In this document: in pieces, positions 50,622-59,769 of the stretch | How positions within the stretch are numbered: position 1 is the first letter of the stretch | Layout of the letters: every line of letters begins with the position of its first letter | Origin: Marine group II euryarchaeote REDSEA-S42_B7 | Lineage (GTDB): Archaea > Thermoplasmatota > Poseidoniia > Poseidoniales > Thalassarchaeaceae | Assembly (NCBI GenBank): GCA_001629255.1 | Contig: LURZ01000032.1 | Span: 1-59,782, forward strand | Reading direction: 5' to 3' | DNA: 59,782 bases | Translations under genes and position numbers: made by a program | Notes under the pieces: model-generated | The model's input: only the letters and a program-made list of their open reading frames with translations | The model's database searches: none | What the model was told of the DNA's origin: nothing

Positions 50622-51506
50622 CTATTCTCCGTCCCAGATCCCTTCTGTAATCATGAAGTCCATCACCCTCTCAGAAACGTTGGCTCTGTTGCCCCCTCTA
50701 ACTCCGGTGGCAGAGACCTCGAACACCTCAGCTGGAATATCCTTCGCCTCCCTTACCTCATATCCCACTTTGCGGCCATATGAGACGGCCTCGATATCTG
50801 GCATTATCCATGCCTCTACATCCTCATCTGCGTACCTGTGCTCGATCATTCGCTTGCGAAGGAGGGCGGAGTACGGGTCCTTCTCAGATACTGGCGTGTC
50901 CCTAATGCCAACTACTACCTTGTTGCCTAGGTCTAGTTCCTGTTGGATCAGCCATTCATGGCCTACGTGCAATGGTTGCCAGCGGCCCGGGAGCAGCACG
51001 GCCTTATTTTTCTCGAAGAGGTGGGATAGTTGGTCCACCATATCATCCACCGTGTGACCGTCTTCCCCGCTAGAGTCGAGTGTGAAGTGGGCACAATTGG
51101 GTTCATCGAATGGATCCGAAATACCAGTGAAATTGGATATCGCCCCCGATCTAGCCTTGGCGTACAGTCCCTTTACATCTCTTTTCTCGCAGACTTCGAG
51201 AGTGGTAGAGACGTGGACCATGACTGAGTTTTTTGGAAGAATGTCCAGTATCTTCTCTCTGACGCTCTCGTAAGGCGTGATGAACGAGCATATCACCGGT
51301 GTGTGCTTGGACAATAGAGTGGCCATCTTTGCAATACCAAGGAGGTGTCTTTCCCTTCCCTCTCTAGAGAAGTCTTGGTTTGAGAAGAAATCCCTGATGG
51401 TGTCGCCGTCCAGAAGTTCGGCTCCGTACCGCTCGCAAGCAGCCTCGGCTATGGTTGTCTTTCCGGCCCCTGAAAGCCCAATCAGCCATACTACCTTGTT
51501 CCCCAT
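50622..51506 (-). CDS. cysC: adenylyl-sulfate kinase fused to a HxGH nucleotidyltransferase domain
   Basis: GLSGAGKTT, LDGD..R, RDVKGLY, FTGISDP; C-terminal GRWQPLHVGH..SAT.VR; start moved to ATG 51506. Confidence 0.9.
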   Translation of the reverse strand: MGNKVVWLIGLSGAGKTTIAEAACERYGAELLDGDTIRDFFSNQDFSREGRERHLLGIAKMATLLSKHTPVICSFITPYESVREKILDILPKNSVMVHVSTTLEVCEKRDVKGLYAKARSGAISNFTGISDPFDEPNCAHFTLDSSGEDGHTVDDMVDQLSHLFEKNKAVLLPGRWQPLHVGHEWLIQQELDLGNKVVVGIRDTPVSEKDPYSALLRKRMIEHRYADEDVEAWIMPDIEAVSYGRKVGYEVREAKDIPAEVFEVSATGVRGGNRANVSERVMDFMITEGIWDGE

Positions 51507-51544
51507 GATGGAATCCCTGTGTGCCGGCGACTCGCGTCGGTCAT

Positions 51545-52345
51545 TTAATCCTGATTCTGAGCCCAAATATCGTTCCACTTGGAACTGCATGTGACCAAGA
51601 AGTATGGATTCAGCACTTCATCGACTAAATCGTACACCAAGGGTTCGCACTGTGGCGATAGGACGAAACCCCCTGCTGCTTCCACAACAGCATGGGCTGC
51701 GGCTATGTCCCAGCAGGAGGTTGGGCCAAATCGAGGATACAGGTCCGCAGAGCCTTCTGCAACGATACATGCCTTGAGGGATGAGCCCATTCTCACAAGT
51801 TCGTGGTCTCCTAATTCCCTCGCGAATTTCTCATCTCTTTCCGCTCGGTGGCTTCCACTTGCTACGAGCCGTGGTTGGGTGCTTGTCTGTTTTTTTACCG
51901 AGATTTCCGAGGTTTCTGCGTCGGTGATTTTGGTTGCTGGAACATCAACCCCTCCGAACCAAGTCGTTCTATTCACAGGGGCGTGAACTACTCCGAAAAT
52001 CGGCTTCCACTTGGGACCCATCCTCTTCATCAGAGCGATGTTGACTGTGAACATTCCATTTCTTTTGATGAACTCCTTGGTTCCATCAAGTGGGTCTACA
52101 AGCCATGCTAATTCACTTTTTTTTGGATCTCCTACCCTTCCCTCTTCGGAGACCACGGGAACTTCTGGATTGATGGTGGACAGGCCTCTGATGATGGTCT
52201 TGTGCGCGGCTATGTCCGCTTTGGTGAGCGGAGAGTCGTCGTCCTTAGACTGTACCTCGATCTGAACCGATGAGTCGTAGACGTCCATTATTGACAGACC
52301 GGCCTCGATGGCGATTCCCACGATTTCAAAGTGGTCAAACTGCAT
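51545..52345 (-). CDS. cysQ: 3'(2'),5'-bisphosphate nucleotidase
   Basis: KDDDSPLTKAD, SEE, VDPLDGTKEF, FTVNIAL, GSSLK, WDIAAAHA. Confidence 0.93.
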   Translation of the reverse strand: MQFDHFEIVGIAIEAGLSIMDVYDSSVQIEVQSKDDDSPLTKADIAAHKTIIRGLSTINPEVPVVSEEGRVGDPKKSELAWLVDPLDGTKEFIKRNGMFTVNIALMKRMGPKWKPIFGVVHAPVNRTTWFGGVDVPATKITDAETSEISVKKQTSTQPRLVASGSHRAERDEKFARELGDHELVRMGSSLKACIVAEGSADLYPRFGPTSCWDIAAAHAVVEAAGGFVLSPQCEPLVYDLVDEVLNPYFLVTCSSKWNDIWAQNQD

Positions 52346-57548: not shown

Positions 57549-57619
57549 GGTTTTGCAGAGTAAAAAACGGCCTTTTTGGCGCGTATTGTAAATAAGCCGT
57601 GGTGCTACTCGGACAATCA

Positions 57620-57637
57620 GGTGAGTGCAAACTCACC
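57620..57637 (+). promoter_or_regulatory. GNRA-capped hairpin in the NCS2 permease leader
   Basis: Perfect stem GGTGAGT-GCAA-ACTCACC, 25 nt upstream of ATG 57663. Confidence 0.5.
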
Positions 57638-57662
57638 AATAGAAAAAAACAATGGTGAAAAA

Positions 57663-59165
57663 ATGGAAGTACAACAATTGGATGATTACTTTGGATATAC
57701 AGAGAAAGGCAGCTCTCTGGAAGGTGAGATTAGGGCAGGTGTAACCACCTTCCTTACCATGGCATACATACTACTGGTTAACCCAGCAATGCTATCCGTG
57801 GCCGGACTCCCCTTCTCAGACGTGCTTTTCGCGACCGCTCTCGCAGCGTTCGTGGGATGCGTGGTTATGGGACTGTGGGCGAACCTACCTTTCGCCTTAG
57901 CGCCCGGAATGGGACTGAATGCGTATTTCGTGTTCGGGGTCGTACTGGGGATGGGTGTAAGCTGGCAGCTAGCACTGTTCGCGGTCTTTGTAGAGGGACT
58001 CCTATTCCTAGCCATGTCAATGCCACAGATACCAACAATAGGAACATGGAGATCACAGATGATCAACTCCATTCCCACTGATCTCAAGATTGCTACAGGC
58101 GCAGGAATCGGAATGTTCCTCGCAATTATTGGTCTAAGGGAAATGGGGTGGATTCAGGACGATGGGGCAACACTCGTCAACCTGGGCGCAACAGAGTCTT
58201 GGGGCGGAACCATTGGAGAGGTCGGAGTCACAACGGTCACCGACGGTTCCTTTGCACTGTGGGAGCACGGCGCCGTTATCTCAATGGTAGCACTGATTTC
58301 CATTGCCGTCATGATGGCAAGAGGATGGAAGGGTGCTATGATCTACGGTATTGGGCTGGCAACTGTCTGGGGCTGGGCTGTTGGAGCATACGATCCATAC
58401 AACGACTTCTTGGCTGGAGGAGCAGGATGGGGCAGTGCAACAGCAGAACTTCCCGATTCCTGGATAGGAATGCCCGAGTCACCTGATGAGACCCTCATGG
58501 CCGCTTTTGGTAGCGAGGGAATGGGAGCGGCCGGAGACAACATGGCCGACTTCCTGCTTGTGATGATAGCCTTCCTGTTCGTTGACATTTTCGATACCTC
58601 AGGTACACTGTACTCCGTCGGGAGGCAGGCAGGATATGTGGATGAAAACGATGTTCTCCACAACTCGGACGAGGCCTTTGCCTCCGATGCTGCAGCTACT
58701 ATTGTCGGGGCTGTCCTCGGAACAAGCACCACTACGACATATATCGAGTCGGCAGCTGGTGTAGAGGAAGGAGGAAAGACAGGACTAACAGCAGTCGTAG
58801 TGGGCGTACTAATGCTTTCAGGACTATTCTTCACAGACCTGTTCGCCGCAGTACCTCAATTCGCAATGGCCTCCGCTTTGGTGATAATTGGAGCACTGAT
58901 GATGAGGCAGGCTGCTGACATCGATTGGTCGGACAGTGAGATGGCTCTCCCAGCATTCCTTACGATTGTCCTGATGCCGTTCACTTACTCCATCGCAGAT
59001 GGAATTGCATTCGGAGTAATCTCCTACTGCGCCATCAAGATTGGAATGCAGAAGTGGGATCAGCTGAACCCTGTCATGTGGACCCTTTTCGTACTCATGA
59101 CGATGTTCTATATCGGTCCTGGCGACTACAGCACGTTCGGCTGGATATTCAACGAACTACTCTGA
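57663..59165 (+). CDS. NCS2/AzgA-like purine permease
   Basis: EIRAGVTTFLTMAYI..NP, LAPGMGLNAYF, FVDIFDTSGT, YIESAAGV..GG.TGL, MPFTYSIADG; SD TGGTGA before ATG 57663. Confidence 0.93.
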   Translation: MEVQQLDDYFGYTEKGSSLEGEIRAGVTTFLTMAYILLVNPAMLSVAGLPFSDVLFATALAAFVGCVVMGLWANLPFALAPGMGLNAYFVFGVVLGMGVSWQLALFAVFVEGLLFLAMSMPQIPTIGTWRSQMINSIPTDLKIATGAGIGMFLAIIGLREMGWIQDDGATLVNLGATESWGGTIGEVGVTTVTDGSFALWEHGAVISMVALISIAVMMARGWKGAMIYGIGLATVWGWAVGAYDPYNDFLAGGAGWGSATAELPDSWIGMPESPDETLMAAFGSEGMGAAGDNMADFLLVMIAFLFVDIFDTSGTLYSVGRQAGYVDENDVLHNSDEAFASDAAATIVGAVLGTSTTTTYIESAAGVEEGGKTGLTAVVVGVLMLSGLFFTDLFAAVPQFAMASALVIIGALMMRQAADIDWSDSEMALPAFLTIVLMPFTYSIADGIAFGVISYCAIKIGMQKWDQLNPVMWTLFVLMTMFYIGPGDYSTFGWIFNELL

Positions 59166-59179
59166 TTTAGTAACGTAAC

Positions 59180-59211
59180 GGGACCGGGGGGTCACTGGCC
59201 CCTCCGGTTCC
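59180..59211 (+). promoter_or_regulatory. GC-rich intergenic stem-loop
   Basis: GGGACCGGGGGGTC / GGCCCCTCCGGTTCC pair about 14 bp including G-U pairs and one bulge; no U-tract follows. Confidence 0.45.
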
Positions 59212-59223
59212 CTAACGGAGTCA

Positions 59224-59769
59224 ATGGCCATGGACGAGTTACTTTCCCGGATTGCCGATTCGGTACGTACTGTCCCGAACTTTCCCATAGAAGGGGTTAT
59301 GTTCAGGGATATCACACCGATTCTGAGCGAACCGGGTCTGGCTTCTTCCATCACCGATCGGTTCGTAACGGACCTCCATCAACTCGGATGGGAACCCGAT
59401 TTGGTCGTTGGTCCCGAGGCTCGAGGTTTCATTTTTGGCCCACTTATCGCAGATCGCCTAGGCTGCGGTTTCGTTCCTGTACGGAAGCCGGGGAAACTGC
59501 CATCTTCCACAAGGCGAGTAGAGTACTCTCTTGAGTACGGCTCAAATGCACTTGAAATTCACGAGGATGCACTAAAGCTAGGCCAAAGAGTCGTCATCAT
59601 CGACGACCTCCTAGCCACTGGAGGTACAATTTCTGCATGCACCAGATTGTGTGAGGAACTCGGGGCGGAGGTTCTAGGAGCCCTGTTCCTGATCGAACTC
59701 GAAGGTTTAGGCGCTAGGGAGGCAATAGAACCCGTGAAGGCCCATGCACTACTCTCATACCCGGCATAA
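59224..59769 (+). CDS. apt: adenine phosphoribosyltransferase
   Basis: PNFPIEGVMFRDITP, EARGF, VRKPGKLP, YSLEYG, IIDDLLATGGT PRPP motif. Confidence 0.96.
   Translation: MAMDELLSRIADSVRTVPNFPIEGVMFRDITPILSEPGLASSITDRFVTDLHQLGWEPDLVVGPEARGFIFGPLIADRLGCGFVPVRKPGKLPSSTRRVEYSLEYGSNALEIHEDALKLGQRVVIIDDLLATGGTISACTRLCEELGAEVLGALFLIELEGLGAREAIEPVKAHALLSYPA

Follow-up and report, generated by a model that had tools for sequence, protein, structure and literature searches.

Which enzyme would feed an adenosine 5'-phosphosulfate (APS) kinase in a genome in which no ATP sulfurylase is recognised? To our knowledge, two types of ATP sulfurylase are used to annotate sulfate activation, Sat and CysDN. The question is raised by a 59,782-nucleotide stretch of DNA, hereafter the window (contig LURZ01000032.1 of assembly GCA_001629255.1), from Marine group II euryarchaeote REDSEA-S42_B7. 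Here cysQ is followed by a gene (cysC-NT) coding for an APS kinase fused to a small nucleotidyltransferase (NT) domain; both genes are encoded on the minus strand, to which the coordinates below refer throughout. In line with the original prediction, made from the bare sequence, that the window holds no sat or cysDN, searches for Sat (PF01747) and CysD (TIGR02039) found neither of them there or in the rest of the genome, a 1.19-Mb, 70.8%-complete metagenome-assembled genome (MAG) of Marine Group IIb (MGIIb; Poseidoniales).

From sequence comparison and genomic context we consider it probable that the NT domain is an unrecognised compact ATP sulfurylase and that the fusion is a two-step synthase of 3'-phosphoadenosine 5'-phosphosulfate (PAPS). 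On the same grounds, cysC-NT probably represents both a new family of enzymes catalysing a known reaction and a new PAPS synthase architecture. It also seems reasonably likely that the domain represents a third class of ATP sulfurylase, derived from nicotinamide mononucleotide (NMN) adenylyltransferase (NMNAT), which together with APS kinase forms a PAPS synthase of ~300 aa. This enzyme would activate sulfate in many lineages that are uncultured or have small genomes, among them MGIIb, some haloarchaea, Marinimicrobia, the candidate phyla radiation (CPR), DPANN and Omnitrophota, and would be carried by hundreds of viral contigs. No description of the NT family or of an NMNAT-like sulfurylase was found in the open full-text literature, subscription journals lying outside the scope of that search.

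The cysC-NT gene and the relatives of its two domains

The arrangement first noticed in the translation, a complete CysC domain followed in frame by an HxGH nucleotidyltransferase domain, is indeed present: PF01583 (APS_kinase) and PF01467 (CTP_transf_like) match in one frame of a 322-aa open reading frame (ORF; 50622-51590), and the quoted motifs were verified by translation. Since homologues are mostly 294 aa long, covering 91% of the ORF (120 closest listed), the start was placed at the ATG at 51506 (MGNKVV...), which gives a fusion gene of 294 codons plus stop at 50622..51506. The ORF remains open for 28 further codons upstream of this conserved start (51507-51590), overlapping the end of cysQ, and one homologue cluster (P0001) has been called at 322 aa, most others at 294 aa. 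The cysQ gene (51545..52345, 266 aa), encoding a 3'(2'),5'-bisphosphate nucleotidase, or 3'-phosphoadenosine 5'-phosphate (PAP) phosphatase, lies directly upstream as had been claimed, its stop codon being separated from the fusion start by 38 nt; its product reaches 248.9 bits on TIGR01331 (cut-off 228.8) and 151 bits on PF00459.

The same fusion architecture is found in independent assemblies at 77-95% identity (120 closest homologue clusters listed), and contigs from seawater metatranscriptomes span the domain junction, one of them covering 50892-51327 with zero differences. Because the architecture recurs in this manner and RNA-library contigs cross the junction, we do not regard the fusion as an assembly artefact. 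Such contigs also cross the boundary between cysQ and the fusion; they cover the window in part, may reflect DNA carry-over, and do not allow transcript ends or levels to be read. Named homologues belong to 'Candidatus Thalassarchaeum betae' and Thermoplasmatota, by which the window is assigned to MGIIb, and the fusion appears in databases as 'adenylyl-sulfate kinase', 'hypothetical protein' or 'cytidyltransferase-like protein'.

The kinase domain (residues 1-168; 51003..51506) matches positions 3-151 of the 152 in PF01583 with 128.6 bits (cut-off 21.1) and narrowly misses the equivalog cut-off of TIGR00455 (130.6 vs 138.7 bits); the CysNC kinases of sister Poseidoniales genomes score ~230 bits on the APS kinase model. 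It aligns over its full length with solved APS kinases (best 2yvu, E 1.5e-28), and alignment to 2yvu and 5cb6 shows that the P-loop GLSGAGKT (51456-51479) and the motifs LDGD, FS..R, SFITPY and KGLYAKARSG..NFTGISDPF are all kept. Judged by its sequence, the window kinase is a diverged CysC. On NF004040, the model for bifunctional Sat/APS kinase, the fusion reaches 128.8 bits vs 669 and covers model positions 398-558, the kinase part, alone; it may work like a PAPS synthase, though it is not a member of that family.

The NT domain (50625..51002), of about 125 aa, matches PF01467 weakly over fusion residues 171-294, with 22.8 bits in the context of the ORF and 24.0 bits for the domain alone (cut-off 21). 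The family has no Pfam or NCBIfam model of its own, and an ESM Atlas search returned unnamed clusters alone. A search with the 128-aa domain against 1.84 billion cluster representatives retrieved 625 proteins at E<=1e-3. Alignment A1, which comprises 56 stand-alone family members, has nine invariant residues (R9, H14, G16, H17, P45, G78, R79, G82 and R104), and G8, G28, R36, V81, S99 and T101 are nearly invariant in it. Several of these fall into short motifs: HVGH (H14 and H17 of the domain; 50958..50969), RDT with the family-specific Arg36, kept in at least 90% of A1 (50895..50903), the GRKVG loop with G78, R79 and G82, which we propose as the sulfate site (50763..50777), and SATGVR, a version of the ISxTxxR motif that would contact the beta- and gamma-phosphates (50697..50714). 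Conservation was also counted over 160 further loci (80 genomic and 80 viral), collected with a 9-sequence alignment and the pattern [FY][IL]GRWQP[FW]H, so that they are biased towards this version of the motif and leave out the MGII form LPGRWQPLH. At residues outside the search pattern, H17, G78 and G82 are kept in all 160 loci, R36, R79, S99 and R104 in 159, and T101 in 156.

Among solved structures, the A1 profile matches the archaeal NMNAT MJ0541 first (E 1.6e-17), the NMNAT of M. thermautotrophicum at ~2e-14, NadM at 1e-11 to 4e-13 and phosphopantetheine adenylyltransferases (PPATs) at ~1e-4, with no ATP sulfurylase in the best 60 of the 79 matches; a single-sequence PDB search has PPAT as its best match. 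An AlphaFold2 (AF2) model of the domain built on A1 (pLDDT 93.4, pTM 0.84) was used in place of a single-sequence model of the whole fusion, which was unusable (pLDDT 38.5). In the fold search, MJ0541 (1f9a) again ranks first (Z 13.0, rmsd 3.0 over 125 residues, 25% identity), PPAT has Z 12.0 and NadM Z 11.3, and the Sat of T. thermophilus (1v47) comes 14th (Z 9.3, 119 residues aligned); Foldseek agrees with this ranking. HMMER aligns profile positions 9-79 with residues 4-76 of MJ0541 and positions 88-138 with residues 110-158. The 33 NMNAT residues in between (77-109), which we take to be the NMN-binding segment, have no counterpart, and 8 positions with the invariant GRxVG stand in their place.

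The window protein itself has no PF01747 match at E<=0.01; 13 of the 56 A1 members give weak matches, below or near threshold (best E 6.4e-6), none of which extends beyond the C-terminal motif. Since NMNAT is nearest by both sequence and fold and Sat-type matches cover the generic ISxTxxR end alone, the alignments and the model identify the NT domain as an offshoot of NMNAT with a rebuilt second-substrate pocket, not as a miniature Sat. According to the model, Sat belongs to the same superfamily without being its nearest branch. The idea of a compact ATP sulfurylase thus has to be divided: the proposed activity has strong comparative-genomic support (see below), and descent from Sat gives way to the closer NMNAT (E 1.6e-17; Z 13.0 vs 9.3). 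The profile and structure searches suggested at the outset against Sat, NMNAT and PPAT therefore turned up archaeal NMNAT, not Sat, as the nearest relative.

Distribution of the fusion relative to Sat and CysDN

Poseidoniales were sampled with 151 genomes. Sat was found in none of the 151, CysD exceeds its cut-off in 19, and NT orthologues (E<=2e-20, at least 79% identity) are present in 31, two of them as contig-end fragments. An APS kinase domain occurs in 48 genomes, which split into 19 with CysNC (~644 aa) adjoining CysD, 29 with CysC-NT fusions and one with a fragment (G142), G132 being counted twice; the two complete forms together account for 47 of the 48. The CysNC genomes are exactly the CysD genomes, and G132 alone has both forms. 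In this genome (family f3) the fusion, a sulfotransferase-like match and cysQ lie on a small contig, C43, and CysD-CysNC on C2; C43 is 83% identical to MGIIb copies and may be a misbinned MGIIb contig. Neither Sat nor a credible CysD was found in 30 of the 31 NT-bearing genomes, and twelve of the fusion genomes reach a completeness of 90% or more. The two forms also alternate within single genera: g6 has nine fusion and two CysDNC genomes, g12 two and four.

The window neighbours identified by the Pfam scan, FtsY, prefoldin alpha, L18Ae and geranylgeranylglyceryl phosphate (GGGP) synthase, belong to a shared gene order: FtsY, prefoldin, X, cysQ, a membrane protein, L18Ae and GGGP synthase. Position X is taken by cysNC and cysD in G103 and G121 and by cysC-NT in the window, G023 and G081. 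Because both fill the same slot beside cysQ, the fusion and CysD plus CysNC are alternatives at one locus.

In the window's family, no more than 9 of the 74 genomes sampled have CysD-CysNC; in genus g17, which belongs to the other large Poseidoniales family, all 10 genomes do. The text of Orellana et al. 2019 (PMC6864105), whose supplementary tables may list which MAGs have which genes, attributes cysD, cysN and cysC to MGIIb MAGs generally and no cysDN to MGIIa. This assignment, as worded in that text, may need refinement, and the statement that MGIIb MAGs encode cysD, cysN and cysC would have to be qualified if the fusion acts as proposed here.

Halobacteria (121 genomes) provide an independent replicate. 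The full-length NT family occurs in four of them, always as a kinase-NT (K-NT) fusion, and ~93 others match the NT profile at positions 7-79 alone, in NMNAT-sized ORFs. APS kinase is found in eight genomes, namely the four with K-NT fusions and four with a stand-alone cysC. In all four of the latter, sat lies directly upstream of cysC; in the four fusion genomes, Sat was not found, nor did any CysD match exceed the cut-off. One fusion carrier, the cultured haloarchaeon Halocatena pleomorpha, has the fusion adjoining a sulfotransferase, and no Sat or CysD was found in its genome.

Beyond these two groups, PF01583 is present in 60 of 71 NT family members of at least 190 aa, in both domain orders, and the fused kinases score up to 230 bits on it. 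The 80 genomic loci comprise 41 NT-K fusions, 12 K-NT fusions, 23 with a separate adjacent kinase gene, one with a kinase elsewhere in the locus and three without a kinase, two of these at locus ends. Carriers include CPR, Omnitrophota, Planctomycetota (among them Scalindua), Marinimicrobia, Bacteroidota, Acidobacteriota, DPANN, MGIII, Pelagibacteraceae and the isolate Halocatena pleomorpha. In IMG/VR, at least 600 stretches matched the pattern, 580 were confirmed and 80 kept as loci: 64 with an adjacent kinase-like gene, 10 with one elsewhere in the locus, four fused and two with none. Counting fused and adjacent kinases together, 76 of the 80 genomic loci and 68 of the 80 viral ones have an APS kinase beside or within the NT gene. 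Fifty of the 80 diverse genomes, for which we have no completeness figures, were checked for Sat and CysD, four CysD matches below 30 bits being taken as other PP-loop proteins; 35 have neither Sat nor a credible CysD. The suspicion that the domain might always co-occur with a canonical sulfurylase is thereby dispelled, none having been found with it in 30 of 31 Poseidoniales, 4 of 4 Halobacteria and 35 of 50 diverse genomes.

The viral loci (L107-L186) have DNA methylases, ThyX, DUF3310 and PD-(D/E)XK nuclease genes as neighbours, and sometimes sulfotransferases or glycosyltransferases; NT plus a short kinase, a pairing very common on such predicted viral contigs, could form a viral PAPS module that has so far escaped recognition, or could serve another purpose. 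A few proteins depart from the common architecture. In P0158 and at L168 3941-4750, NT is fused to DUF6717 (117 and 113 bits) instead of APS kinase, and P0190 has a C-terminal DHHA1-like region (23.6 bits, below cut-off), presumably reminiscent of NrnA-type pAp phosphatases.

CysQ, sulfotransferases and the likely use of PAPS

cysQ keeps its position beside the sulfate-activation genes in related genomes. It occurs (E<=1e-30) in 36 of the 151 Poseidoniales genomes, and NT or CysD is matched in 35 of these, all but G073. A PF00685 match of 54 bits identifies a sulfotransferase in the source genome; a PAPS reductase was not found there, the sole PF01507 match being a PP-loop protein of 23.7 bits on another contig. 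PF00685 matches are present in 56 of the 151 genomes, concentrated in genera with APS kinase; 15 of the 31 NT-bearing genomes have one within 1.5 kb of the fusion, and in G121 and G133 one lies between cysQ and cysD. Across 30 diverse loci, a sulfotransferase is found within two genes of NT in seven, Halocatena included, and polysaccharide genes are frequent neighbours. These observations point to a pathway that would serve sulfation, not sulfur assimilation, and so agree with the use that had been suggested, given a sulfotransferase within 1.5 kb in 15 of 31 genomes and no PAPS reductase found in the source genome.

Many MGIIb genomes (G023, G027, G081, G135 and others) have a gene of ~250-300 aa between cysQ and the sulfate-activation gene, which the window does not have; in most of them it gives weak to moderate PF00685 matches. 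The G027 counterpart reaches 22.1 bits, and the G023 copy (L092 6390-7139, 249 aa) has zero Pfam or PDB matches. That the 249-aa protein is sulfotransferase-like is only a lead from its G027 counterpart. Farther away in the window, at 57576-59769, a Xan_ur_permease gene (89 bits) is followed by a phosphoribosyltransferase gene; G019, G023 and G027 have this pair of genes too, at a distance of 7-9 kb from the fusion. A PF00916 'sulfate transporter' match (29.5 bits, 7 kb from the fusion) was rejected, the gene being this Xan_ur_permease beside the phosphoribosyltransferase.

Proposed reaction, competing explanations and known systems

We propose the following scheme. The NT domain would bind MgATP through HVGH, Arg9 and SATGVR, as NMNAT and PPAT do, HVGH serving as the site of the ATP alpha-phosphate as in HUP nucleotidyltransferases. 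Sulfate would be held where the NMN phosphate would otherwise be, by Arg36 and the GRxVG loop (Arg79), and transfer of AMP to it would yield APS and pyrophosphate, i.e. the ATP sulfurylase step. The APS kinase, fused or adjacent, would phosphorylate the 3'-OH of APS to give PAPS, and this trapping may pull the unfavourable first step without a GTPase of the CysN type. Sulfotransferases would then consume PAPS, and CysQ would remove the by-product PAP. In MGIIb, the single cysC-NT gene takes the slot that cysD and cysNC occupy in sister genomes.

Several results weigh against this scheme. The closest relatives of the NT domain are NMNAT and PPAT, not Sat. Comparison of A1 with a thin alignment of four Sat domains by hhalign aligned the generic ISxTxxR region alone (43 columns, probability 52%); in it, the Sat-type motifs QxRNPxHxxH and GRDHAG are unaligned with NT motifs, and the suggested equivalence of GRKVG with GRDHAG was not recovered, although a deeper Sat profile might alter this outcome. 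No sulfate transporter was identified, the PF00916 match having proved to be a nucleobase permease. A canonical sulfurylase is present in 15 of the 50 diverse genomes (Sat in four, CysD in five, CysD-like genes of 185-228 bits in six, from Omnitrophota, Planctomycetia and Acidobacteriota). At L067 (3812-6948), in an Acidobacteriota MAG, divergent CysD/CysN-like genes stand beside the NT-K gene, the sole such case among the 160 loci, and since they adjoin it, NT would be redundant there if it were a sulfurylase. Most genomes in these comparisons are MAGs. Finally, many kinase partners in Marinimicrobia, CPR and viruses match about two thirds of the APS_kinase model, and in these short-kinase forms the function of NT plus kinase may differ. 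L067 is also the one locus of the 160 in which His replaces Arg79, a suggestive coincidence with the CysD/CysN-like genes in a single case.

Part of this evidence would suit a domain that acts in the PAPS pathway without adenylylating sulfate: a regulatory or scaffold domain binding APS or PAPS, comparable to the kinase-like allosteric domain of fungal ATP sulfurylase, or an enzyme that uses another anion or runs a reverse or salvage reaction. In each case an unrecognised source would have to supply the APS. The 15 genomes with Sat or CysD-like genes and the adjacency in L067 would mean that NT is kept despite a sulfurylase, and the similarity to Sat is confined to a generic C-terminal motif. 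Nevertheless, we regard this explanation as unlikely. The HxGH and ISxTxxR residues, which a purely regulatory domain would not need, are kept in 156-160 of 160 loci, the fusion genomes of Poseidoniales and Halobacteria have no candidate source of APS, and in the operon the fusion stands in for cysD and the cysN part, at the same position.

Alternatively, the kinase could act first, as in NadR or HldE, so that a small molecule such as nicotinamide riboside or a sugar is phosphorylated and then adenylylated, without relation to sulfate, at least in the short-kinase forms of viruses, CPR and Marinimicrobia. NMNAT is the enzyme most similar to NT, the short kinase partners (142-165 aa) match PF01583 positions ~4-110 alone, and the surroundings of several viral copies consist of DNA methylase, ThyX and DUF3310 genes, not of genes for sulfation. 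Yet the window kinase keeps every APS-kinase motif at full length, fusion partners elsewhere reach 230 bits on the APS kinase model, and the segment that presumably binds NMN in NMNAT is deleted. cysQ and sulfotransferases recur as neighbours, NT is distributed in a manner complementary to Sat and CysDN, and the viral loci L123 and L160 carry sulfotransferases as well, all of which makes a kinase-first enzyme quite improbable for the window protein; for the short-kinase forms it is less so.

That NT is an ordinary housekeeping NMNAT or PPAT fused to CysC by chance is hardly credible: PPAT is the best single-sequence PDB match and NMNAT models match all 56 A1 members, but the scores (29.8 bits on NF002243 for the window protein, 20.8-23.4 on the archaeal NMNAT model TIGR01527, of which the N-terminal half alone is matched, and 21-23.5 on the PPAT model TIGR01510, CoaD) are far under the curated cut-offs of 127, 181 (181.2) and 103 (103.3) bits, the domain is ~40 residues shorter than every matched NMNAT or PPAT chain, and phyla and viruses alike show the link to APS kinase, in both orders and as adjoining genes. 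An NMNAT-like gene separate from the fusion was identified in all 5 of the 5 fusion genomes examined for it (57-76 bits vs 21-24 for the fusion; C31:3036-3437 in the source genome) and in 3 of 4 fusion-bearing Halobacteria.

If the NT domain is an ATP sulfurylase, many abundant marine and groundwater microbes and phages now scored as being without sulfate activation could make PAPS, and annotation of the fusion as just 'adenylyl-sulfate kinase' would miss sulfate activation in these lineages. How sulfated glycans are read in such microbes, and the place of the latter in the marine sulfur and carbon cycles, would change as well, and hundreds of viral contigs would carry sulfate activation as an auxiliary module. 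The domain would also be a case of the NMNAT scaffold re-tooled for an inorganic anion, and the fusion a single-chain PAPS generator of ~300 aa for biocatalytic sulfation. As a cultured carrier, Halocatena pleomorpha makes a direct test of the idea feasible.

The proposed enzyme resembles known systems in some respects and departs from each of them. The bifunctional PAPS synthases of Aquifex aeolicus (2gks) and human (PAPSS1, 1x6v) likewise join a domain of nucleotidyltransferase fold and an APS kinase on one chain; their kinase domain is homologous to that of the fusion (E 2.7e-26 for 2gks and 1.9e-25 for PAPSS1), and the proposed chemistry, from sulfate through APS to PAPS, is alike. Their sulfurylase, however, measures ~350-400 aa against ~125 aa in the fusion, which, unlike these Sat-CysC enzymes, is devoid of the PUA-like domain, RNPxHxxH and GRDHAG. 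CysD-CysN(C) shares the MGIIb slot beside cysQ, the downstream APS kinase and presumably the product, but CysD is a PP-loop ATP pyrophosphatase whose fold is unrelated in detail to NT, and the fusion dispenses with the GTPase subunit and needs 0.9 kb of coding sequence where CysD-CysNC takes 2.9 kb. Archaeal NMNATs (MJ0541/1f9a, the M. thermautotrophicum enzyme and NadM) have GRxQPxHxGH, NP(F/Y) and ISxTxIR in common with NT, which has the GRxVG loop instead of NMNAT residues 77-109. Pairing of an HxGH adenylyltransferase with a P-loop kinase is familiar from CoA synthase (PPAT and dephospho-CoA kinase) and NadR (NMNAT and ribosylnicotinamide kinase, RNK). Their substrates differ from those proposed here, and the window kinase is by all its motifs an APS kinase, not CoaE or RNK; CoA synthase has its kinase phosphorylate the adenylylated product at the 3'-OH, the very order of steps that we propose for cysC-NT.

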